DNA of 46,604 nucleotides. Source: a virus (taxonomy: Duplodnaviria > Heunggongvirae > Uroviricota > Caudoviricetes). The DNA is taken from IMG/VR virus record IMGVR_UViG_2565956727_000002; one strand, 5' to 3'. Below are positions 2,620 to 44,965 of this stretch, piece by piece. Each line of letters begins with the position of its first letter. Position 1 is the stretch's first letter. Under the pieces are notes generated by a model. The model was not told the origin of the DNA and ran no database searches. It was given only the letters and a program-made list of their open reading frames with translations. The translations under genes and the position numbers were made by a program.

Positions 2620-3210
2620 ATGTCTCGAATTTTTGCTTACTGTCGGATATCAACGCTGGATCAGACCACCGAAAATCAACGCCGGGAAATCGAAAGTGCA
2701 GGTTTTAAAATCAAACCTCAGCAAATAATCGAAGAACACATTAGCGGCTCAGCAGCAACCAGTGAGCGTCCTGGTTTTAACCGGTTGCTTGCTCGCCTGA
2801 AATGTGGTGATCAATTGATTGTGACAAAACTGGATCGCCTTGGTTGTAATGCAATGGATATCAGGAAAACAGTGGAACAACTGACCGAAACAGGTATCAG
2901 AGTGCATTGCTTAGCATTGGGTGGCATTGACCTGACCAGTCCAACAGGAAAAATGATGATGCAAGTAATTTCAGCAGTCGCTGAATTTGAACGAGACCTT
3001 TTACTTGAACGCACTCATTCCGGGATAGTAAGAGCCCGCGGCGCAGGGAAACGTTTTGGTCGACCACCTGTGTTAAATGAAGAACAGAAACAGGTGGTAT
3101 TCGAACGAATTAAGTCAGGTGTAAGTATAAGTGCCATTGCCCGGGAATTCAAAACCTCGCGGCAAACCATTTTAAGAGCCAAAGCAAAACTTCAGACACC
3201 TGACATATAA
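2620..3210 (+). CDS. pin: serine recombinase, DNA invertase Pin/Gin/Hin family
   Basis: 196 aa; N-terminal catalytic motif YCRISTLDQ (active-site Ser), resolvase core and C-terminal HTH; typical size for Pin. Confidence 0.9.
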
Positions 3211-3481
3211 AAAATAATCTCGGTGTGAGATGCTTTACGTCTTCCAAGCCCCCTTCCTTGCCGTAAATGGAAAGATACATCTAATTATAGAATTTATATG
3301 TTTTACCCTACGGCAGTGCTGGCCATTCAATATCCGGTACTACTGATGTATTAACACGGTTCAGCAACACCCGATACTTTTTCCAGACTTCCAGCAACGA
3401 AGTTTCTTCCTCCGTTGCGATTTCCAGCTCAACAACAGTCTGAACGTACCAGGAACAGCCTCCTTCAGGGCTTGAAGGATA

Positions 3482-6400
3482 TCAATGTTCGCTTCCTGTT
3501 AACTGCCCGACAAGTGCAACCAGTTCGCTTACCTGATTTTCCAGAGTGCGGATCCGGGTGCCTGCTGTTGCCAGATTTTTACGTAGCGTTATGTTTTCCT
3601 CTTCCAGCGCGGTAACGCGACCATCTGTTTCACGGGCGACCTGAACAAGTAACCCCGTCACGGCGGCGTAGTCAACATTCAGATAACGTGTTTCTTCACG
3701 TAATTCATTGCCGTCAACCGTTGGTCCCTGCAACTCTTCACCGTAATGAGTAAACGATCCCACAGCTTCTGGTATCGCCTCCATTACTTCCTGTGCAATA
3801 ACGCCAGCATAAGGCATCCCGTTTTCCCTGAGCGTGTAGGTGTATCCGTTCATTTTACGGATTGCTTTCGTCGCGTCGCTGATAACGAGAATATCGTCTT
3901 TAAGGTCGCGGTCTGATGACTGATTCAGCGTTGTGCAATTAATAGCGCCATTTACATCAAACAACTGGCCTGCTGACGTTTTTTGCGCATAAAACAGATA
4001 CGCAGCAGACGTTCCAACCTCAAAAACGTTTTGTCGATCACTTGATCCCCATACTTTTGCGGCAAATGATAGTTCTGTATTACCTAAGTTCTGTAAAACA
4101 AAACGATTGCCAGTCCCTGTTTGTTTTGTAAGAGTTAAATCAACAGTTGAATTAACCTCATCCTTGTTGATAGTGAGCGCCTGCGCTTTAGCCCCGTTAA
4201 CAGCACCTGTTTTGAGTTGAACCGCGCCGTCATTACCATTTAACAGTATCTCAGCTCCGCTAAAGAAATTTTTTAGCGACAGCATCTTACTTACGCCGAC
4301 TGATGAACCCAACGCCCACGCGAGAGAATTACCGGTGCTATCAAACCCACGTACAAAGCAATCCATTTTGCTATAGTCTGACGTGCTTCCAAGGACATCA
4401 ATTCGCCCTCCGCCAGATTTTACCGGGTTAGATGTGGTTAATGACCTGACAGCAAGATCGGTAGATGAATTGAGATCGTCTACTGTTAGTAATTTCTTCC
4501 ATTCCTGCGTCGTTCCATTTTCAATTGTTCTTCCCCAAAAACCGGAATTGCGGCCTCCGAACTGCACAGCATAATTTTTACTAAATTGAACATGAATGCC
4601 GCCAAGAACCATAGAACCTGCCGGGCCGTTTGTACTGCCTGCAATTGGTATAAATTTATTAATGTTATCAGTATGCTGCGTGTTCCAGTCTCGTCCTGTT
4701 TTTGTAAGCAGTCCTAATGTCGTGTCGAGCGCTTCGGTTAAAGTAAGGTTTTTAAATTTAACTGCGCTACTTTCGCCAAGACTTAAGTTGTTTCGCGCAT
4801 CTTCTACTGTTGTCGCACCTGTACCTCCTTGCCCAACAGCTAATGGCAACCAGCCAGTGCCATTATGACAACCCCACAAACCAGATTTGGAAACCTGTAA
4901 GCGTGGTGCGCCTGAAGAATACGTAGAATATACGTAAGTTGTTTCTTTTCCCTCTTCAACCCTTTCTGTTGATACATCTCTCTTCCATTCAGACCAGGTA
5001 CCGCTTCCTCCTTCATATATTCGTCTATAAGTAATTCCCGGATTATTATAAGGGTAGTACACCTGAACGCAGGAAGAAGCAGTGTTGGCTCTCGTTTGGA
5101 GCACTATTAAAGCGCCCGCCAGACCGATTGGGTAATTTAATTCTTCTGTTGCGTAAGCGCTCGTTGGTTGTTGATAGAAACCAGAATATTCACCGGTAAG
5201 GGTGTTTAGGTCAGTATTAGCAAGGCCAGCTTTTTGCTCATACATTACCCGCAAGTTCGCACGTGCTTGCTCGATAGTTCTTCCACCAGTACCGCCCTGG
5301 GCTAAACCTAACGGAGACCATTGTCCAGAAGAAGAATCATAAACCCCCCAACTCCCGTTAGTATGGATTTCAAAGAAACGATCACCAGTTGGACCATACA
5401 TACGAGTTGTTGATTCATTTTGACCAAAGCGGCTTAATTCATCTCTGCGGGTATGACGTATCCATTGCGGGCCAGAACTTTGGCTGTAAATGTACGAATA
5501 CAATGATTTTGTATCTGAACCAACAAATAGACCGGAATATCTTTTTGTTGACACTTCTGATCTAACTATATAACCAGAAATAAGATTATCACCGGCACTA
5601 GACGCTACTGATGGATAACCTTTCGCTGAGATGTAAATCCTGACAAATCCAATATAACCTGATGGCTCAACAGAGATATCAGTGCAGGTCATGGCAACTT
5701 CACCAAGACCGATATTATCGCCAACAATTACTTGCGCCTGGTTGCGATAATTAAGTGCGTCCGCCGCAGATTTCGCCGCGTTTGTTTCACTGGATTTAGC
5801 ATTAGTTTCGCTGGCTTTAGCGTTGGTTTCGCTGCTCTTTGCTGCTGCCTCGCTATTTTTCGCGTTGGTTTCTGATTTTTTGGCTGCTGTCGCGGAGTTT
5901 GCTGATGCAGTTTGTGAGTCTGCTGCCGCCTGTGCGCTGTTATCCGCATTCGTCTCAGACGTTTTTGCGGCCTTCGCGGAATTTCCTGCCGCCGTTGCCG
6001 AGGAAGCTGCACTACTGGCACTTGATGATGCGTTCGTTTCTGATGATTTCGCTGCCTCTTTTGAGGCCGCCGCATCCCGGGCTGAGGTGGCAGCTTCTGA
6101 CGCTTTCGTGGTCGCGGTGGATGCAGAAGTGGCTGCAGATTTTTGTGACGCTGCAGCATTCGTTTCTGACGTTTTCGCCGCACCGGCACTGGTAGCCGCC
6201 GCGCTTTTTGAGGACTCTGCAGCGGCAGCACTTTTTGATGCTTCAGTAGCCTTTGTTGATGCCGTTCCTGCGCTGGAAGACGCTGACTGAGCCGACGTCG
6301 CGGCCTGCCCGGCTGATGTGCTGGCTGCACGTGCTGAGCCTGCAGCATCAGTCGCATGGGTTGCCGCCTCACGGGCTGATGTGCCGGCATCGCTGGCTGA

Positions 6401-6793
6401 CTTCTTCGCGGCTGCCGTGTCCTGTGCCACTGCGGACGCGTTACGCGCCACCTCTTCCACCATCAGTTCAAAGCGGCGCAGTGCCTCCGGACGGGCATCA
6501 TCCTCCGTCATGGCACCGAGAAAATCATTCAGCGTACCCGGTTGTGAGTCTTCATACACGGTGATGGTCCCGGCATGCGATGGCGGGAAGCCTTCCACCA
6601 TCAGAATAACGCTGTACTGACCGTACTCAACGTCCATGCTGTAACGCCCGGCTTCATCCGGATTTTCTGAGGCCACCGTGTTCACCACCACCGTGGTGCT
6701 GTTACGTTTTGCTTTCAGCTGGATTGTGCAGTTCTGTACCGGTTTACCTGCACCGTCTTTCAGTACACCTGAAATCTTTACTGCCATATTCAC
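3482..6793 (-). CDS. stf: side tail fibre protein (lambda Stf-like) with C-terminal intramolecular chaperone (peptidase S74-like) domain
   Basis: N-terminus MAVKISGVLKDGAGKPVQNCTIQLKA... is lambda Stf-like; long Ala/Ser/Thr-rich SETNA repeat region; C-terminal ~150 aa resembles the self-cleaving chaperone domain of endosialidase/T5 L-shaped fibre; true start probably at MAVK (6787). Confidence 0.85.
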   Translation of the reverse strand: MNMAVKISGVLKDGAGKPVQNCTIQLKAKRNSTTVVVNTVASENPDEAGRYSMDVEYGQYSVILMVEGFPPSHAGTITVYEDSQPGTLNDFLGAMTEDDARPEALRRFELMVEEVARNASAVAQDTAAAKKSASDAGTSAREAATHATDAAGSARAASTSAGQAATSAQSASSSAGTASTKATEASKSAAAAESSKSAAATSAGAAKTSETNAAASQKSAATSASTATTKASEAATSARDAAASKEAAKSSETNASSSASSAASSATAAGNSAKAAKTSETNADNSAQAAADSQTASANSATAAKKSETNAKNSEAAAKSSETNAKASETNAKSSETNAAKSAADALNYRNQAQVIVGDNIGLGEVAMTCTDISVEPSGYIGFVRIYISAKGYPSVASSAGDNLISGYIVRSEVSTKRYSGLFVGSDTKSLYSYIYSQSSGPQWIRHTRRDELSRFGQNESTTRMYGPTGDRFFEIHTNGSWGVYDSSSGQWSPLGLAQGGTGGRTIEQARANLRVMYEQKAGLANTDLNTLTGEYSGFYQQPTSAYATEELNYPIGLAGALIVLQTRANTASSCVQVYYPYNNPGITYRRIYEGGSGTWSEWKRDVSTERVEEGKETTYVYSTYSSGAPRLQVSKSGLWGCHNGTGWLPLAVGQGGTGATTVEDARNNLSLGESSAVKFKNLTLTEALDTTLGLLTKTGRDWNTQHTDNINKFIPIAGSTNGPAGSMVLGGIHVQFSKNYAVQFGGRNSGFWGRTIENGTTQEWKKLLTVDDLNSSTDLAVRSLTTSNPVKSGGGRIDVLGSTSDYSKMDCFVRGFDSTGNSLAWALGSSVGVSKMLSLKNFFSGAEILLNGNDGAVQLKTGAVNGAKAQALTINKDEVNSTVDLTLTKQTGTGNRFVLQNLGNTELSFAAKVWGSSDRQNVFEVGTSAAYLFYAQKTSAGQLFDVNGAINCTTLNQSSDRDLKDDILVISDATKAIRKMNGYTYTLRENGMPYAGVIAQEVMEAIPEAVGSFTHYGEELQGPTVDGNELREETRYLNVDYAAVTGLLVQVARETDGRVTALEEENITLRKNLATAGTRIRTLENQVSELVALVGQLTGSEH

Positions 6794-6798
6794 CCCAC

Positions 6799-6824
6799 AA
6801 AAAAGCCCGCCTGAACCGGCGGGC
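6799..6824 (-). terminator. putative rho-independent terminator downstream of lom
   Basis: GC-rich hairpin gcccgcc-tgaac-cggcgggc followed on the minus strand by a T-run. Confidence 0.5.
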
Positions 6825-6851
6825 TGTCATAACACTGTGTTACCTGGCTAA

Positions 6852-7451
6852 TCAGAATTTATAACCGACACCCACGATGAAACCGTCAGTGCGCCAGTCA
6901 CCACTGCCGGAGCCTTCATAAGCAATATCAATGGCCACGGATTCGGTCGGGTTAAACTGCACGCCAGCTCCCCACGCCAGAGACGTGTTGCTGTGGCGAG
7001 CGTCATCACTTCCGGTCAGCACGTCGTGCGTTTTCCCCTTGTTGTCAATTACGCGGAGATAATCCCCGGAGAAAGTCGACACACGGCTGTAAGCCACACC
7101 CGCCATCGCATACGCGCTGAACCATTCATTCACGCGCACAGACGGCCCCGCCATTACGCTGAACCAGCGGTTACGAACGGAATCTTCATGCCAGCGGGTA
7201 TCGCTGTAATGGGTCAGCTGGCGATTCTTGTCTCCTGCATAGCTGAATGACGTCACCAGCCCCAGCGTATCCGTAAACTCATAACGGTATTTCACGTTAA
7301 TCCCGTTCAGATCATCACTGCCGGGAACGTTGGTCCGGGCATGAAGATACCCCGCGCTCAGCGTGGACTGATGTTCAGACGCCCATGCAGGCGCACCGGA
7401 TACGGCCAGACAAATGGCTGCGGACAAAATGGCGGCACAAACTTTACGCAT
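6852..7451 (-). CDS. lom: outer-membrane beta-barrel protein Lom (Ail/Lom family)
   Basis: 199 aa with signal peptide, alternating beta-strand pattern and C-terminal aromatic residue (...GVGYKF); position between J and stf as in lambda. Confidence 0.9.
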   Translation of the reverse strand: MRKVCAAILSAAICLAVSGAPAWASEHQSTLSAGYLHARTNVPGSDDLNGINVKYRYEFTDTLGLVTSFSYAGDKNRQLTHYSDTRWHEDSVRNRWFSVMAGPSVRVNEWFSAYAMAGVAYSRVSTFSGDYLRVIDNKGKTHDVLTGSDDARHSNTSLAWGAGVQFNPTESVAIDIAYEGSGSGDWRTDGFIVGVGYKF

Positions 7452-7521: not shown

Positions 7522-10500
7522 TCAACGAATACTGATGCCGGAAGCCGCTTTTTTGGTCACAATCACCGTACAGTCGGTGATATTGCCTGCCCCCTGATTG
7601 CCTTTCTGGAAAATCTTAAACTCCAGAGTGACGCTACCACCACCACTAGGCATATCAATAACTGCACTGTAACTACCGGGAATGGCCCCTTTAGTTTCTC
7701 TGGATGCGATTAATACGCCGTTTTTGCGAACTTCAAAACCATAACCCGTGTATCGCGTGCCTCCTGGGTTATTTCCGCTCCCCGGATCGTCATACGCTAT
7801 ACCGTTAAAAATAATGGGCGGAATAATAATCTGGCGGTCAAAGTTATGATCATCGCTGATGGTGACTGTAACCGTACCGTCTGGTGTTTCCGTGTTACCC
7901 CACGTACCGACTTTTTTCGGGAAGGCTTTTGATACAGCTTTAACGAAATCCCCTCTGACCTGGGTCGCCTCCAGCATGCCCTTAATCGTACAGTTCTGGT
8001 TAATCGTGACATTGTTGAGCGTTCCTGAGTTCGCATTCACACTGCCACTGATATCCGCATTTTTAGCGGTCAGCTTTCCGTCTGATGTCAGGGAAAATAC
8101 CGGAGGACTGCCACCACTGGTAATGGTGGGGGCCGTCAGGCGCTTCAGGAACACGTCGTTCATGAATATCTGATTGCCCTGCGCCACAAACATCGGCGTT
8201 TCATTCCCGTTTGCCGGGTCAATAAACGCGATACGGTTAGCGGCAACCAGAAACTGGCTCAGCTTGCCTTCCTCCGTGTCCTCCATGCTGAGGCCAATAC
8301 CCGCGACATAATGTTTGCCGTCTTTGGTCTGCTCAATTTTGACGCCCCACATGGCATTCCATTTATCGTTAGCGTCCTTCCACTCTTTCGAAAACTCATC
8401 CAGTCTGCTGGCGTTATCCTCCGTCAGCTCGACTTTTTCCAGCAGCTCCTTGCCGAGATGGGATTCGGTTATCTTGCCTTTGAAAAAATCCAGGTAACCT
8501 TCCGCATCATCGCTCGCCCGACCGACGGCCTCCACGAATGCCGATTTGCCAACGGTGTTCACACTGCGGATATAAAAGTAATAATCATGGCCCGGTTTGA
8601 TATTGATACTGGCGGCTATCCAGTACAGCCCCGTGCCAAGGTAGCGGGCTGTGGTTTCAACCTGCCTGATATCGGTAATCCGCGTTTCCGAGAACCAGAA
8701 CTCAAACTGTACCGTCGGATCATAAACCGCAAGATGCGGCGTGGCGGTTATCTGAAAATAGCCCGGCGTCAGCTCAATCCGCGACGGCGCTGCCGGTGCG
8801 GCAATCCGGAACGATACCGACGCCGGATCGCCCTGCTGCCCCCAGGCATTTGCCGCCCGGACTGTCAGCCTGTAGTTTCCCAACGCCAGTTGCGTGAAGC
8901 GGTATGTGGTTTCCGTCGTCCGGGCCGTGCTGACCAGCCGCTCACTGCCGTCATCCGCTGCCACGGTCAGGCGAAGCATAAAGCTCACGCCCTTCACCAC
9001 CTTCGGCGTGTCCCAGCGGGCCAGTACCTGATACTCCCCGCTGTCTGCGGTGACTTCGGCAGTCAGGTGCTGCACCGCTGGCGGCGTGACACCATTCACC
9101 GTGCCGCTCTGGTCGCCGTCAAAGTGCGCCCCGTTATCCACGATGGCCTCTTTTTCCGGTACATGCTGCACGGCGGTGATGGCATACGTGCCGTCGTCGT
9201 TCTCACGGATACTCACGCAGCGGAACAGGCGCTGGCGCAGCGTCGGCAGCTTCAGCCCCCACACGCTGTATCCGGCAACGCCGTCAGGAACACGGCTCAC
9301 TTTTACCTTCACGCCGTCGGTGACGGACTGGACCTCCACGCTGACCGGATTGCCACTTCCGTCAACCAGGCTTATCAGCGTGGTACCGGAGGATGGCAGA
9401 GTGATTTCACGGTCGAGCGTCAGCGTCCGGGTCTGGCTGTTTACCGCCAGCACGCGCCCGCCGATGCTGATACCGGCATAGTCATCATCACAGATTTCAA
9501 TAACATCGCCCGGCACATGGCGAAGCCCTTCTGCGCCCACGCTGAAGTCCACGGTCTGCGTTTCCAGCAGTTCTGTTTTAATCAGCCACAGCCCGGCGCG
9601 ATGTGCCTGCCCCCGGCTGGTACAGCCAAAGGCATCCATCTTCGTGACGTTACGACCGTAACGGGCAATGGCCTGCGTGTCCTCCACAAGCTCTGTCGCC
9701 GTCTCCCAGCCGTTATTCGGGTCAATCCAGTTCACCTCAACGGCATTATGGCGGTCCTTCAGGGCGCTGAAGCTGTAGCGGAACGGCGCGCCATCATCCG
9801 GCATCACCACATTACTGCGGTTATAGGTCCACACCTTATCTGATGGTCGGTCCTGCACGAACGTCAGCGTCTGCCCGTTCCATACCGGCATACAGCGCAT
9901 CGCCGAGCAGAAATCACTGAGCACATCCCACGCCTTGCGCTGTGTGGTCAGGCACGCATTACAGGTGATGCGCGGCTCCGTGCCGCCAAAGCCGTCCGGC
10001 ACTGACTGGTCGCAGTACTGGCCGATGACATACAGCGCCCATTTGTCCACATCCGCCGCACCAAGACGTTTCCCCATGCCGTAGCGCGGGTGGGTCAGCA
10101 TATCCCACAGACACCAGGCCATGTTGTTGCTGTATGCTGGTTTTAACGTTCCGTCCCAGATACCGCTGTATTGTCGCGTCTGCGGGTTATAGTTCGACGG
10201 CACCTGCAGAATGCGCCCGCGAAGATGATAATTACGACTCACCTGCTGGCTGCCGAACTGCTCCGAGTCCACCTGTACGGCGACCAGTGCAGTGTTCGGG
10301 TAGCACTGTTTCACATCGATGATTTCGGTGTATGACGACCAGAGCGTTTTGTTCTGCAGCTGGTCTGTAGTACTGTCCGGTGTCATCCTGCGCATCCGGA
10401 TATTGAACGGGCGCGGCGGCAGGTTATCCACCACCACCGAGGCCAGATACTGCGAGGTGGTTTTGCCCTTAATGGTGATGTCTTTTTCCGTCACCCAGCC

Positions 10501-10935
10501 ACCGTTACGCTGTATCTGAACCAGCAGGCGGACTTCCGACGGATTCCTGTCTCCCTTTGAGGTGGTTTCCACCAGTGCCTGTACACCGAAGGTAAAGCGC
10601 AGACGGTCGATGTTTGCCGACGTGATGGTCCGGGTGATCGGCGTGTCATATTTCACTTCCGTACCCAGCACAGTCTCGGAGCCGGAGGATTCAAACCCCT
10701 CCGGCGGTGACTGCTCCTGCTCACCTGCCCGGAACACCACCGTGACGCCGGAGATGTTGGTATTCCCCTCATTGTCCAGCACCGGCGTACTGTTCAGCAG
10801 CACGCTTTTTAATCCATCCACCGGACCTTCAACCGGCCCTTCACTGATGGCATCGATCACACTCAGCAGTTGCGTGGACTTCAGGTTGTCCTTCGCTTCG
10901 CGCGGGGTATGCCCCTTACTGCTGCCTTTACCCAT
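7522..10935 (-). CDS. J: tail tip host-specificity protein J (central tail fibre)
   Basis: 1137 aa, lambda J-like throughout (fibronectin-like repeats, C-terminal receptor-binding region); gene order I-J-lom. Confidence 0.95.
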
Positions 10936-35902: not shown

Positions 35903-37678
35903 TTACTCTTGCAATTCGATGATCTGCTCTTTACCTAGTAGATGATTAATAATATTTAATACTTTTTCTCTGTTCTGGAAGAATCTTGCTATATAACTAT
36001 TGGGGAAGACTTCCTGTATGTGATTATAAGTATCAGAAGCCAGCTCTATACATTCCTCCAGTGAAACGTTTCGGCTATAAGAGAAGATGTGATTCTCCAC
36101 AGAGGAAACTTCTATTTTATTCATGAGTATGGATATTAAAACATAATTTCCATGAATCATTATTTGATGAATCTGCTTCTGATTTTCCATATCTACTGAT
36201 AGTAGTTTAACTATACTTTCTTGCAATATATCATTTGCTAATCTATAAGCATTTACTTTATTTATTATATCCAAACCGGTAGGACCATTTTCAGCTGGGA
36301 ATACTTTTTCATAAAGACCTCCCCAGCTTTCAAAAAAACGTCCTCTATTTAGTTTTAAGGAAGATATCAATGTTTCATCTTTAGAGGCACACACTAATGC
36401 GTTTAAAGCATCATCAATATCAATGGTATTACCACCTGTCTGGCTGGAGTCTTCTTGCCTGAGTAGTTTGTAGCTATATCCGCCAATAAAGTTTATTTCT
36501 CTTTGTATTCTTTGTTGCTCGGGCCTCTGTGATGAGAAATCTCTTCCAGTAACCCTGTTTTGTGTATTGTTGAATTTAGTGACAGAGGTTAAAAAATCTT
36601 CTTTTGCTGCACTGATAAATCTAATGCTCACCTTGATTAGATCTTTTTTTTCTTCGGGTAAAGAGTTGAACACTTCACCAATAGTGCTTACAGTTTGAGC
36701 TCCATTTATTATACTCAGACTTTTAAAACTAAATAGCCCGTACTTCCTGCTTGTACTTAAGTTGATCATGCTTTCTTCTACATCACTATATACAGCAGTT
36801 ATCCCATTGTTATAGTACCAAAAATTCTCCGGCTTTTCACTTAATGTTTTCTTTATCCCAGAGTTTATGGATGAATTACCGAGGACACTTCTTATATTTT
36901 TCTCGAACAGAGAGTACTTGTACTTTTCCCACCAGTCGTATAGGATCCTTGCGGATATTGTTCCGTATATTGCTTTATAAGGTTCTGCTATCTCTCCATA
37001 ACTTTCAAGGTGAACATTGCTAACATTTATAGATTTTGATCGATCATTAGAAAGACCATCCATTATCACTTGTATACCTGCCGGCTCGAATAGCACTGAA
37101 TACTCATCTCTATTCTCTATATCTTTAAATAATAGAGACCGATTCTGAACCTTTTCCCAAAACTCTATGTCTGATTTTACTTCCTCGCTTGGCTCATGAA
37201 CCCCTGTATATATAAATACACATATACATTTATATGTAAATCCTGAGATTGCTTCAATTATGGAGTCTTTGTTTCTTAAAAACCTTTCGTTAAATGTTGT
37301 AAAGTCGCTGGCTATTACTTTTGCGCATGCGTCTTTGAATCTTCCGAATTCTCTTGTGGTTATAGAACCGTCGCCATTTTTAATATATTTTGACTGAACT
37401 ATTACTATCTTTCTCGAATTTTTATTAACATAAACTGCATCTATCCCGCCATCATCTTTTCCATCGCAGACAGCATTAGCAGCTAACTCAGGGTCTGGTT
37501 CATCACCATACAAGCTGATTGCATGCGCAGCTACACAGCGTGTAATTAGAGTTTCTTTCCTATGCTCTCCTACGGAATTAATATCTTTCATATCAATAAA
37601 AGTTCCGTATATAGACTCTAATTGATTAGTTATGCGTACTAAACCTGCTGTTTGCGTGGCTTTGTCGTACTGGGACAT
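35903..37678 (-). CDS. putative abortive-infection / anti-phage defence protein, AIPR-like, with N-terminal PD-(D/E)xK-like nuclease motif
   Basis: 591 aa in a markedly AT-rich segment; N-terminal DGGIDAVYV...IVIVQSKY nuclease-like motif; central NGAQT motif characteristic of AIPR proteins; own terminator and about 290 bp upstream non-coding region. Confidence 0.6.
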   Translation of the reverse strand: MSQYDKATQTAGLVRITNQLESIYGTFIDMKDINSVGEHRKETLITRCVAAHAISLYGDEPDPELAANAVCDGKDDGGIDAVYVNKNSRKIVIVQSKYIKNGDGSITTREFGRFKDACAKVIASDFTTFNERFLRNKDSIIEAISGFTYKCICVFIYTGVHEPSEEVKSDIEFWEKVQNRSLLFKDIENRDEYSVLFEPAGIQVIMDGLSNDRSKSINVSNVHLESYGEIAEPYKAIYGTISARILYDWWEKYKYSLFEKNIRSVLGNSSINSGIKKTLSEKPENFWYYNNGITAVYSDVEESMINLSTSRKYGLFSFKSLSIINGAQTVSTIGEVFNSLPEEKKDLIKVSIRFISAAKEDFLTSVTKFNNTQNRVTGRDFSSQRPEQQRIQREINFIGGYSYKLLRQEDSSQTGGNTIDIDDALNALVCASKDETLISSLKLNRGRFFESWGGLYEKVFPAENGPTGLDIINKVNAYRLANDILQESIVKLLSVDMENQKQIHQIMIHGNYVLISILMNKIEVSSVENHIFSYSRNVSLEECIELASDTYNHIQEVFPNSYIARFFQNREKVLNIINHLLGKEQIIELQE

Positions 37679-42493: not shown

Positions 42494-44965
42494 ATGAGTA
42501 AAGTCTTTATTTGCGCCGCTATTCCTGACGAACTGGCAACAAGGGAAGAAGGCGCTGTGGCTGTAGCCACAGCCATTGAAGCTGGCGACGAACGCCGTGC
42601 TCGAGCAAAATTTCACTGGCAATTCCTGGAACATTATCCGGCTGCTCAGGACTGCGCTTATAAATTTATTGTCTGCGAGGATAAACCTGGCATACCCCGC
42701 CCTGCCCTCGATTCATGGGATGCTGAATATATGCAGGAAAACCGCTGGGATGAGGAGTCTGCTTCTTTTGTCCCGGTTGAGACTGAATCCGATCCGATGA
42801 ACGTCACTTTTGACAAGCTGGCCCCTGAAGTACAGAACGCTGTCATGGTTAAGTTCGACACATGTGAAAACATCACCGTTGATATGGTTATTAGCGCACA
42901 GGAATTGTTGCAGGAAGACATGGCAACATTCGACGGACATATCGTTGAAGCGTTGATGAAAATGCCAGAAGTTAACGCCATGTATCCGGAGCTTAAGTTG
43001 CACGCCATTGGGTGGGTTAAGCATAAATGTATTCCTGGTGCTAAATGGCCCGAAATTCAGGCAGAGATGCGCATCTGGAAAAAACGTCGCGAAGGTGAAC
43101 GCAAGGAAACCGGAAAATACACGTCTGTTGTTGATCTCGCCCGCGCCAGAGCCAATCAACAGTACACTGAAAATTCAACAGGAAAAATCAGCCCGGTCAT
43201 TGCTGCCATTCATCGCGAATACAAGCAGACATGGAAAACACTGGATGACGAACTGGCCTACGCTCTCTGGCCTGGTGATGTGGATGCCGGAAACATTGAC
43301 GGCAGCATCCATCGCTGGGCAAAAAAAGAAGTTATCGACAACGACCGCGAAGACTGGAAGCGTATCTCGGCATCAATGCGCAAACAGCCTGATGCCCTTC
43401 GCTACGACCGCCAAACTATTTTTGGCCTTGTCCGTGAGCGTCCGATCGACATTCACAAAGATCCCGTAGCACTGAACAAATATATCTGCGAATACCTGAC
43501 GACAAAGGGCGTGTTTGAGAATGAAGAAACAGACCTGGGCACTGTTGATGTTCTCCAGTCATCAGAAACACAAACTGATGCAGTGGAAACTGAGGTATCT
43601 GATATCCCAAAAAATGAAACCGCGCCGGAAGCTGAACCATCTGTAGAGCGTGAGGGGCCGTTCTATTTCCTCTTCGCAGATAAGGACGGAGAAAAATACG
43701 GTCGCGCAAACAAACTTTCTGGTCTGGATAAGGCACTGGCTGCTGGCGCCACTGAAATCACAAAAGAAGAATATTTTGCCCGAAAAAATGGCACATACAC
43801 GGGCTTACCGCAAAATGTAGATACCGCTGAAGATTCAGAACAACCAGAGCCGATAAAAGTTACCGCTGACGAAGTAAACAAAATTATGCAGGCAGCCAAT
43901 ATCAGCCAGCCTGACGCCGATAAGTTGCTTGCTGCATCACGTGGTGAATTTGTTGAAGGGATTAGTGACCCGAATGATCCGAAATGGGTTAAGGAGATCC
44001 AGACCCGCGATTCTGTGAACCAGAACCAGCATGAATCGGAACGGAACTACCAAAAAGCGGAACAAAACAGTCCAAATGCGTTACAAAACGAGCCAGAAAC
44101 GAAACAGCCTGAACCAGTGGCGCAACAGGAAGTGGAAAAAGTCTGCACCGCCTGCGGTCAGACCGGCGGCGGCAACTGCCCTGATTGTGGCGCGGTGATG
44201 GGCGACGCAACATACCAAGAAACATTCGATGAAGAGTATCAGGTTGAAGTTCAGGAAGATGATCCGGAGGAAATGGAAGGCGCTGAACATCCACACAAGG
44301 AGAACACTGGCGGCAATCAGCATCACAATAGCGATAATGAAACTGGCGAGACGGCAGATCACCCAATTAAGGTGAACGGTCATCACGAAATCACATCCAC
44401 CAGCAGGACGTGTGACCATCTAATGATCGACCTTGAAACCATGGGAAAAAATCCTGATGCCCCGATCATCTCAATAGGTGCAATATTTTTCGATCCGCAA
44501 ACCGGAGATATGGGACCGGAATTTAGTAAGACTATCGATCTGGAAACTGCTGGCGGAGTCATTGATCGGGACACCATTAAATGGTGGCTTAAGCAATCAC
44601 GCGAAGCGCAATCTGCCATTATGACCGATGAAATCCCGTTAGATGATGCACTGTTACAATTGCGGGAATTTATCGACGAAAACTCCGGTGAATTTTTTGT
44701 TCAGGTTTGGGGAAATGGAGCCAACTTCGACAACACGATTTTGCGCCGTTCATACGAACGGCAGGGGATCCCCTGCCCGTGGCGTTACTGCAACGATCGC
44801 GATGTACGCACAATCGTTGAGCTGGGGAAAGCCATAGACTTCGATGCCAGAACGGCTATTCCATTCGAAGGTGAGCGCCATAATGCACTTGATGACGCCC
44901 GTTACCAGGCAAAATACGTTTCAGTTATCTGGCAAAAACTGATCCCGAGTCAGGCTGATTCTTAA
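42494..44965 (+). CDS. large prophage exonuclease (YdfE-like) with C-terminal DEDDh 3'-5' exonuclease domain and central zinc ribbon
   Basis: 823 aa; acidic central region, CTACG...CPDCG zinc ribbon, C-terminal DnaQ-like motifs (…MIDLET…, …GNGANFD…, …HNALDDA…). Confidence 0.75.
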   Translation: MSKVFICAAIPDELATREEGAVAVATAIEAGDERRARAKFHWQFLEHYPAAQDCAYKFIVCEDKPGIPRPALDSWDAEYMQENRWDEESASFVPVETESDPMNVTFDKLAPEVQNAVMVKFDTCENITVDMVISAQELLQEDMATFDGHIVEALMKMPEVNAMYPELKLHAIGWVKHKCIPGAKWPEIQAEMRIWKKRREGERKETGKYTSVVDLARARANQQYTENSTGKISPVIAAIHREYKQTWKTLDDELAYALWPGDVDAGNIDGSIHRWAKKEVIDNDREDWKRISASMRKQPDALRYDRQTIFGLVRERPIDIHKDPVALNKYICEYLTTKGVFENEETDLGTVDVLQSSETQTDAVETEVSDIPKNETAPEAEPSVEREGPFYFLFADKDGEKYGRANKLSGLDKALAAGATEITKEEYFARKNGTYTGLPQNVDTAEDSEQPEPIKVTADEVNKIMQAANISQPDADKLLAASRGEFVEGISDPNDPKWVKEIQTRDSVNQNQHESERNYQKAEQNSPNALQNEPETKQPEPVAQQEVEKVCTACGQTGGGNCPDCGAVMGDATYQETFDEEYQVEVQEDDPEEMEGAEHPHKENTGGNQHHNSDNETGETADHPIKVNGHHEITSTSRTCDHLMIDLETMGKNPDAPIISIGAIFFDPQTGDMGPEFSKTIDLETAGGVIDRDTIKWWLKQSREAQSAIMTDEIPLDDALLQLREFIDENSGEFFVQVWGNGANFDNTILRRSYERQGIPCPWRYCNDRDVRTIVELGKAIDFDARTAIPFEGERHNALDDARYQAKYVSVIWQKLIPSQADS

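Follow-up and report, generated by a model that had tools for sequence, protein, structure and literature searches.

Among described side tail fibres, gpStf of lambda (Ur-lambda, orf-401 + orf-314) is encoded after J and lom, and its residues 102-393 have been modelled, partly on the basis of AlphaFold3, as a coiled coil in the proximal part of a trimeric fibre in which cryo-EM resolves a trimeric bundle (PMC12617516). The distal part of gpStf is a T4 gp37-like domain that needs a separate Tfa chaperone (orf-194), and the protein is without a tandem KxSETNA expansion and without an S74 domain. In related phages the chaperone is either intramolecular or a separate Tfa (bioRxiv 10.1101/2024.09.12.612763). 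The Stf proteins of the lambdoid phages mEp460 (JQ182728) and Ayreon (MF807953) are built from a PF08400 N-terminus, a heptad array, a variable middle and a tip followed by an S74 domain, and tfa is absent downstream of both genes. C-terminal S74 domains with an S-D-x-x-x-K motif, in which beta hairpins precede a long C-terminal helix, are also found in endoNF (3GW6), T5 pb1, S16 gp37 (6F45) and MyRF (7DC3). The catalytic dyads of endoNF and MyRF are S911/K916 and S587/K592, cleavage occurs N-terminal to the Ser, and a C-terminal triple coiled coil drives trimerisation (PMC8326128).

We analysed a stretch of viral DNA of 46,604 nucleotides (the window), in which an ORF of 1103 aa, counted from GTG 6793, follows J and lom in the lambda order and is flanked by pinQ, ydfK and ydfJ (Table 1). 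By homology and gene order, this ORF is a lambda-type side tail fibre gene (stf) in a Qin-like prophage, at the ydfJ/pinQ locus of E. coli, and the earlier description of the product as Stf-like was borne out both by its N-terminus and by its position in the lambdoid tail cluster. The true start is probably ATG 6787 (1101 aa, MAVKISG...), because GGGGTGA precedes this codon and GTG 6793 falls within that Shine-Dalgarno sequence. The stf DNA is a 100% match to E. coli FREC5 (WP_023277779.1), an identical protein is present in RefSeq, at least 80% of the gene is held by 116 complete genomes, and all 30 records among the matches listed have full coverage at 99% identity or more. The reading frame of J is intact within the window. 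FREC5 carries an internal stop in the adjacent J gene, by which some stf copies are judged to reside in decaying prophages, and the relative H3 has an IS1 inserted inside stf. An NCBIfam search gave no match for the fibre protein or the tfa stub. The gene and its architecture are already known from the RefSeq entry, from sequenced phages and from the name 'prophage tail fiber N-terminal domain and S74 family ...' that NCBI gives to products of this architecture.

Table 1. Coordinates of the features of the side tail fibre locus in the window.
Feature	Position	Strand	Remarks
pinQ serine invertase	2620..3210	+	Pfam Resolvase + HTH_7; annotated pinQ; convergent with stf
tfa 3' remnant (tail fibre assembly gene)	3308..3433	-	last ~45 codons
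stf ORF	3482..6793	-	stop at 3482-3484; listed start GTG 6793
Peptidase_S74 intramolecular chaperone domain, aa 960-1103	3485..3916	-	144 aa; Pfam, profiles, fold
Long C-terminal helix, aa 1042-1100	3494..3670	-	model helix 362-420, 59 residues
SDRDLK motif	3899..3916	-	Ser960 putative nucleophile, Lys965 putative general base
Distal beta-rich shaft and putative receptor-binding tip, aa 676-959	3917..4768	-	AlphaFold, mEp460, phrog_6578
Knob module 2, aa 517-675	4769..5245	-	similar to R-type pyocin fibre knob
Knob module 1, aa 361-516	5246..5713	-	ends in GGTG..AR.NL motif
Heptad array, aa 116-346	5756..6448	-	33 uninterrupted heptads; consensus x-x-S-(A/E)-x-x-A
Three tandem 21-nt units	5777..5839	-	KSSETNA-KASETNA-KSSETNA; only truly tandem DNA repeat
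Overlapping ORFs	5728..6620 (span)	+ and -	5823-6290 +, 5839-6195 +, 6253-6564 +, 6318-6620 +, 5728-6390 -; judged spurious
N-terminal collar-binding domain, aa 3-96	6506..6787	-	phmmer 9e7m, PF08400
Terminator-like hairpin	6804..6825	-	between lom and stf; equivalent annotated in mEp460 and Ayreon
lom	6852-7451	-	
J	7522-10935	-	

The proximal part of the fibre closely resembles gpStf. Pfam placed phage_tail_N (PF08400) at aa 3-136 (E 1.7e-71), and phmmer aligned the N-terminal domain with the lambda Stf collar domain structure 9e7m (E 4.4e-52; identity above 90%), the domain by which the fibre attaches to the tail tip. Over its first 848 nt the gene is 88% identical to lambda DNA, and both proteins contain the heptad array, in which SETNA units coincide at three positions. 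Unlike gpStf, the protein of the window continues with two knobs, a tip of beta structure and an S74 domain, and tfa downstream is reduced to a stub. Since the gp37-like distal domain and the separate downstream Tfa are both missing, the fibre represents a variant of the lambda architecture, as in mEp460 and Ayreon. The tip and S74 domain together are 89% identical to those of mEp460 and 78% identical to those of Ayreon; the Stf of mEp460 differs from that of the window by 236 aa in place of the second knob (1202 vs 1103 aa in total), and that of Ayreon diverges from aa ~333 (1252 vs 1103 aa).

The earlier note had proposed that the C-terminus resembles the S74 chaperone, and the profile searches, the dyad, its conservation and the fold all agree with that assignment. 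Pfam Peptidase_S74 (PF13884) matched aa 960-1011 with 45.7 bits against a cutoff of 22, phmmer aligned the C-terminus with phage S16 gp37, SSDRxxK included, and a search with a profile of homologues recovered 6f45 (E 1e-14) and MyRF 7dc3 (E 1e-5). Matches to N-termini of phage depolymerases in the same profile search were rejected, as they came from N-terminal extensions of other members of the alignment and not from the window protein. Ser960 and Lys965 have the same i/i+5 spacing as the endoNF and MyRF dyads, and across 63 diverse homologues, the most distant at 25% identity, the Lys and Asp of the motif (K285, D281) never vary, while its Ser (S280) is conserved in at least 90%. The predicted scissile bond is Ser959|Ser960, which would make Ser960 the first residue of the released domain. 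The AlphaFold model of the C-terminal part had a pLDDT of 82.6 (monomer), and its top Foldseek matches were 3GW6 (endoNF) and 7DC3 (MyRF), with probabilities of 0.96-1.0; TM-scores against the solved chaperone domains were low (0.14-0.20 by query length and 0.22-0.52 by target length), the model being a monomer of an intertwined trimer. The fold comprises beta hairpins and the C-terminal helix, which has a pLDDT of at least 90 over most of its length and may, by analogy with MyRF and endoNF, be a trimerising coiled coil. In the window it is a lambda-type side fibre that carries the domain, and not an endosialidase, a T5 L-shaped fibre or a eukaryotic transcription factor.

From these likenesses, the S74 domain probably cleaves itself off. 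We considered whether it could instead be retained as a non-cleaving module for trimerisation and folding, or whether the whole gene could be a decaying remnant of a cryptic prophage that makes no functional fibre. Qin-type prophages are often defective, the J stop of FREC5 and the IS1 in H3 point the same way, and endoNF cleavage also needs upstream residues such as Arg897 (PMC8326128). However, the ORF is unbroken over 1103 codons next to an intact J, distant homologues retain the Ser, Asp and Lys of the motif, mEp460 and Ayreon, which form plaques, share the C-terminal module at 78-89% identity, and the gene occurs in the 116 complete genomes mentioned above, at full length and near identity in the 30 records listed. 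We therefore regard retention without cleavage, or decay of the gene, as improbable.

At the position of the tfa remnant, FREC5 has a PGAP pseudogene 'missing N-terminus', and in comparisons with tail-fibre-assembly PHROGs the remnant aligns only to their C-terminal ends. Folding of the fibre would thus presumably be independent of Tfa. Lambda can form plaques without side fibres (PMC12617516), and that the tfa-less phages mEp460 and Ayreon are viable is therefore no proof that their fibres assemble and fold. A gix/hix-like core (AAACCNNGGTTT, 1 mismatch) was sought near stf and pinQ and not found there, and the inverted repeats detected were short and imperfect. We rejected an active invertible tail-fibre switch for want of this crossover core near either gene, and pinQ is, for the same reason, apparently orphaned.

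Between rod and chaperone, the two knob modules form an internal duplication (33% identity, E 9e-11). The assignment follows from the similarity of aa 531-675 to the R1 pyocin fibre knob 6cl5 (phmmer E 2.4e-6; GGxGAxTxxxARxN motif included), a likeness to the R-type pyocin knobs (6CL5/6CL6) at the level of sequence only, and NCBI names the product of relatives 'pyocin knob domain-containing S74 family peptidase'. Knob module 1 was modelled with a pLDDT of about 64-89; the structure prediction for aa 347-690 reached a pLDDT of 56, and a PDB fold search with this poor model returned only low-TM matches to beta-propellers and lectins. In the distal shaft and tip, residues 35-267 of the AlphaFold model are all beta strands. 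This region matches phrog_6578 and is 89% identical to the C-terminal part of mEp460 Stf; after the predicted cleavage, aa 959 would be the mature C-terminus.

The proximal repeat region had been described in the earlier note as a low-complexity array of K(S/T)SETNA units at about 5760..6460. Its extent was almost exact and it is Ala/Ser/Thr-rich, but it proved to be a strictly phased heptad array and not generic low-complexity sequence, in which K(S/T)SETNA is one heptad variant. Over 231 residues there are zero phase breaks, with Ser in 28 and Ala in 31 of the 33 units, and the conserved Ser and Ala positions show a 3/4 spacing. The seven KxSETNA units, with SETNA at aa 209, 251, 279, 307, 321, 328 and 335 (window 5777..6169), are separated by exact multiples of 7 residues, and, relative to shuffles that preserve composition, residue autocorrelation reached z of ~10 at lags of 7, 14 and 28. 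Ala, Ser and Thr make up 70% of the array, the GC content is 58%, and there are no large hydrophobic core residues. Similar Ala/Ser/Asn/Glu-rich repeats, e.g. ...NSASAAHQSEVNAENSATASANSA, occur in residues 172-269 of the T7 tail fibre gp17, the alpha-helical coiled-coil rod of that protein; the similarity is weak (E 0.005), and that segment is much shorter and follows a different N-terminal adaptor. In phmmer searches, KxSExNA heptads were also found in one phage depolymerase with weak similarity, and a match to the RNA polymerase II CTD heptads was rejected as a heptad/low-complexity artefact.

The array is a homologue of the coiled coil in the proximal part of lambda gpStf, and on this basis we infer that aa 116-346 form an alpha-helical coiled-coil rod of three chains, ~34 nm long. 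For a parallel trimeric coiled coil, Ala and Ser are unusually small core residues. Improbable too is the reading that the stretch is a disordered linker or a non-helical fibre whose periodicity arose by repeat expansion: it would suit the Ala/Ser/Thr content, the missing large hydrophobic residues and the artefactual alignment with the disordered polymerase CTD, but it is opposed by the unbroken phase with conserved positions 3/4 apart, by the clearly placed array indels of relatives, which are multiples of 7, by the rigid proximal rod with a trimeric bundle that the homologous lambda segment forms (PMC12617516), and by a DNA that is merely 61-85% repetitive against a perfect phase in the protein, which argues for selection on structure and not for recent expansion.

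At the nucleotide level the repetition that had been expected is present, but modest. TRF reported a single tandem repeat in the array, a 21-nt unit repeated 2.4 times at 5784..5834, so that the array is not a classical DNA tandem repeat and an analysis of heptads at the protein level was needed. Dispersed repeat families of 21-41 nt and 61-85% identity have spacings that are all multiples of 21, and at lags of 21 and 84 nucleotide autocorrelation reached z of 6.6-7.0 against codon shuffles. Length variation, which the earlier note had foreseen as probably recombinational, was seen when relatives were compared: near-identical proteins with the same flanks differ by whole units, with in-frame deletions of 7, 14 and 98 aa, whose junctions lie at a shared TCAGCCCG and within KxSETNA units, and the three tandem 21-nt units are the site of the 7- and 14-aa deletions. 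Across the family, heptad number ranges from 16 to 46, on a scoring rule that gives the window array 31 heptads. Such variants are rare among close relatives, since most clusters share the heptad count of the window and length-variant clusters hold 1-3 members, and some could be repeat assembly errors.

Five ORFs of at least 100 aa overlap the array, four antisense and one in another sense frame. We rejected them as real genes, as they track stop-codon depletion in the skewed, GC-rich array: over 230 codons, one alternative sense frame is free of stops and one antisense frame contains 1, compared with 34-66 stops per 756 codons in the alternative frames of the remainder of the gene. The earlier suspicion that they are spurious was therefore justified. 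The annotated orf206b of lambda occupies the equivalent position and is the same artefact; stop-codon depletion thus accounts for the spurious ORFs of gene callers at both places.

Together, these results make it highly probable that stf encodes a modular side fibre composed of a collar domain, a heptad coiled-coil rod, two knobs, a beta tip and a self-cleaving S74 chaperone, that Tfa is dispensable and its gene decayed, and that the array DNA serves as a recombination substrate. Three chains would plug into the tail-tip collar through their lambda-type N-terminal domains, and the phased heptads, with small Ala/Ser at two core positions, would form a thin trimeric rod whose length would set the reach of the fibre. 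The duplicated knobs would be followed by the beta-rich shaft and the tip, by which a surface receptor is presumably bound. The terminal helix of the S74 domain would trimerise and template the folding of the upstream beta-structure, after which the Ser960/Lys965 dyad would cut before Ser960 and release the 144-aa chaperone. With folding help built in, a separate Tfa chaperone would be dispensable, and tfa has decayed to its 3' stub beside the apparently orphaned invertase.

As the protein is a RefSeq entry and the design is present in mEp460 and Ayreon, the discovery value of the gene itself is small. The SETNA heptads, as in-phase junction points, and the Tfa-free tip would be usable for chimeric lambda side fibres and for retargeting of host range. 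The array DNA is matched in 4703 of 5426 complete E. coli genomes, most at 90% identity or more, its homology to other stf alleles stops at SETNA units, and it is present in a median of 2 and a maximum of 10 copies per genome; several copies per genome suggest a reason for the many partial sequences among deposited stf proteins. Recombination of lambda with Rac and Qin via stf/tfa homology occurs at ~2e-6 (PMC3945230). Conservation of heptad DNA across the stf genes of E. coli may permit the in-phase loss or gain of units by slippage or short-homology recombination, and also let prophages and phages trade their distal receptor-binding modules by homologous exchange. Because the array DNA is at least 90% identical in most E. 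coli genomes and homology ends at SETNA heptads, we tentatively suggest that, besides coding for a rod, the heptad DNA could be maintained as a shared homology arm, through which lambdoid phages and prophages might swap distal modules in phase, including Tfa-dependent for self-chaperoning tips and vice versa, and that gain or loss of whole heptads might match fibre reach to how thick the surface glycan layer of the host is.

A lambda-like prophage with an intact J gene, inserted at the Qin locus of E. coli (ydfJ/ydfK/pinQ), makes up the window, and an integrase lies at the opposite end from stf, the side tail fibre gene. Its stf ORF is 100% identical to that of E. coli strain FREC5, of which the source of the window is a close relative; the FREC5 copy is annotated as a "prophage tail fiber N-terminal domain-containing protein" (WP_023277779.1) and has host specificity protein J, Ail/Lom, a tfa pseudogene, pinQ, ydfK, and ydfJ as neighbours. 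Because a terminator hairpin and then GGGGTGAAT-ATG lie upstream of stf, the true start is almost certainly ATG 6787 (MAVKISG, as in lambda), and the listed GTG start at 6793 falls within the Shine-Dalgarno GGGGTGA; both candidate starts lie in window 6787-6797. Residue numbers follow the listed ORF; subtracting 2 gives the ATG numbering. The gene belongs to well-known families; NCBI annotation already has a name for its architecture, which sequenced phages also carry. Elsewhere inside the prophage we observed a likely defence gene whose 591-aa product carries an AIPR (abortive infection phage resistance) domain, and near the integrase end a gene for an 823-aa protein with a C-terminal Rv2179c-like 3'-5' exoribonuclease domain and no Pfam match in its N-terminal 640 aa.

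Positions of the features discussed (window coordinates unless another record is named)
Feature	Residues	Position	Strand	Remark
stf ORF		3482..6793	(-)	3312 nt
Heptad array	116-346	5756..6448	(-)	33 consecutive heptads, zero phase breaks
Knob modules	361-516, 517-675	4769-5713	(-)	internal duplication
tfa stub		3308-3433	(-)	directly past stf stop
pinQ serine invertase		2620..3210	(+)	convergent with stf, adjoins tfa 3' stub
AIPR-domain protein gene		35903-37678	(-)	
823-aa protein gene		42494-44965	(+)	
Lambda orf206b		L006 (lambda locus) 3004-3624; J02459 20147..20767	complement	GenBank annotation
Reverse transcriptase + TIR gene		L004 (locus of the P0079 relative) 5821-7449	(-)	

The earlier note's observations on stf were confirmed and its interpretation was supported with refinements, the first of which concerns the repeat unit. 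Its coordinates (5760..6460) and its K(S/T)SETNA motif held, but the unit itself is a heptad, x-x-S-(A/E)-x-x-A. SETNA occurs seven times (aa 209, 251, 279, 307, 321, 328, and 335) at spacings of 42, 28, 28, 14, 7, and 7, every one a multiple of seven. The third position of the heptad is Ser in 28 of 33 units, the fourth Ala or Glu in 28/33, and the seventh Ala in 31/33; residue identity autocorrelation reached ~0.40-0.48 at lags 7 to 42 compared to 0.21 in shuffles (z 7-11). Repetition at the DNA level is modest: nucleotide autocorrelation at lags 21 and 84 gave z 6.6-7.0 against codon shuffles, TRF detected a 21-nt unit in just 2.4 copies (5784..5834), and a repeat search found families of 21-41 nt with 61-85% identity at spacings of 21, 42, 63, 84, 126, 210, and 231 nt. 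Given the unbroken phase, these results therefore indicate that the heptad register is maintained by the protein and not by recent DNA duplication. Across window 3482-6448 GC content shifts sharply within the gene, from 58% in the array to 45% in its distal two thirds, which would fit horizontal acquisition of the distal module.

Overlapping the array are five ORFs of 100-220 aa, four of them antisense and one in another sense frame. Over 230 codons within the array, stops number 0 in one alternative sense frame, and 1 and 5 in two antisense frames, compared to 34-66 stops per 756 codons in alternative frames elsewhere in stf; this scarcity bears out the proposal that the array is the source of spurious antisense ORFs. 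The same compositional artefact persists in the GenBank record of lambda as orf206b, which runs antisense to orf-401 (aa 166-373) inside the heptad array.

Lambda Stf (orf-401) has the same array, with ~34 heptads and SETNA at the same three proximal positions, and over the first 848 nt it shares 88% DNA identity with the window. In Ur-lambda, cryo-EM/cryo-ET distinguished a collar domain (residues 1-91), a linker, a hinge, and a distal domain among the parts of gpStf (PMC12617516). The conserved Ala and Ser positions of the heptads are 3 and 4 residues apart, as in coiled-coil cores; repeat sequences weakly similar to the array occur in T7 gp17 (residues 172-269) and in the N-terminal region of a phage depolymerase, and behind the anchor of DT57C LtfA there is likewise a coiled coil of three helices (PMC10713586). 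From these comparisons we infer that the array would form a trimeric alpha-helical rod of ~34 nm (231 residues x ~0.15 nm).

Distal to the array, two duplicated modules (33% identity, E 9e-11) each terminate in a GGTG..AR.NL motif, and the knob of the R1 pyocin fibre (6cl5) aligns with the second at E 2.4e-6. The knob module was seen solely in E. coli fibres (44 database clusters), and the knob region gave a poor overall structure prediction with an uninformative fold search. Phage mEp460 (JQ182728) lacks the second module and has another insert, of 236 aa, at that position. The following aa 676-959, an all-beta shaft and tip in the predicted model, share 89% identity with the C-terminal part of Stf from mEp460 and 78% with its counterpart in Ayreon (MF807953).

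The C-terminus was suspected to resemble the S74 intramolecular chaperone, and a Pfam search matched Peptidase_S74 at aa 960-1011 with 45.7 bits (cutoff 22). Using phmmer, aa 939-1011 aligned to phage S16 gp37, including ...SSDRxxK..., and in S960-D-R-D-L-K965 the Ser and Lys are spaced as in the catalytic dyads of endoNF (S911/K916) and MyRF (S587/K592). Across 63 aligned homologues (down to 25% identity) the Asp and Lys of this motif are invariant and the Ser is at least 90% conserved; the profile from this alignment matched 6f45 (E 1e-14) and the MyRF ICA domain (E 1e-5). In the AlphaFold model (mean pLDDT 82.6), beta hairpins precede a 59-residue terminal helix, and the model's best PDB matches were the endoNF intramolecular chaperone 3GW6 and MyRF 7DC3 (probability 0.96-1.0), with TM by target only up to 0.52 because an intertwined trimer was modelled as a monomer. 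As MyRF is cleaved between P586 and S587, directly ahead of the Ser (PMC8326128), the mature fibre is predicted to end at Ser959, releasing a 144-aa chaperone.

Similarity of the open stretch past the stf stop to tail-fibre-assembly families is confined to their last ~45 positions, and PGAP calls the stretch a tfa pseudogene without its N-terminus; it looks like a relic of a Tfa-dependent fibre tip, superseded by the S74-type module. The neighbouring pinQ is apparently orphaned, and no gix/hix-like core was recognisable as a crossover site near it. Among closely related phages, use of an intramolecular chaperone or else of a separate Tfa is known (bioRxiv 10.1101/2024.09.12.612763), and the isolated phages mEp460 and Ayreon share this fibre design and lack tfa. 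The stub and these phages support the suggestion that a separate Tfa would be unnecessary, although phage viability does not prove Tfa-free assembly since side fibres are not required for lambda plaque formation (PMC12617516).

We scored single-register heptad runs in 120 cluster representatives sharing the N-terminal domain, and these spanned 16 to 46 units, the window lineage having 31 by this scoring. The expected recombinational length variation was evident as clean in-frame deletions within the array, with flanks as in the window, of 7 aa (homologues P0023 and P0025), 14 aa (P0024), and 98 aa (P0079, P0080, and P0081). Junctions mapped on the DNA of two variants fell inside repeat units: a 294-nt deletion joined window ~6380 to ~6085 at a common TCAGCCCG, both ends lying in direct-repeat copies 294 nt apart, and a 42-nt deletion lay inside tandem KxSETNA units. 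Such variants are rare (clusters of 1-3 members), which calls for some caution over assembly errors. Many database homologues (P0001-P0240) are "partial" proteins, possibly because array and S74 modules recur in several prophages per genome and break short-read assemblies. Just downstream of stf in the P0079 relative lies a reverse transcriptase and TIR domain gene, a candidate defence cargo.

Array DNA matched 4703/5426 complete E. coli genomes at a median of 2 places per genome, stfR of the Rac prophage included. Megablast matches to other stf genes of E. coli, among them stfR, typically stop at query nt 552-555 or 687, that is, at window about 5946-5949 (where the third KTSETNA heptad ends) and about 5814 (inside tandem KxSETNA units), which therefore places the mosaic joints at SETNA units. 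Lambda recombines experimentally with Rac and Qin via stf/tfa homology at about 2e-6 (PMC3945230). Together, the deletions, the homology ends, and this recombination indicate that repeat units are lost at the array and that it also acts as a joint at which modules are exchanged. What is left of mild interest is that a strictly phased heptad array acts both as a joint for in-frame recombination and as a putative rod of variable length.
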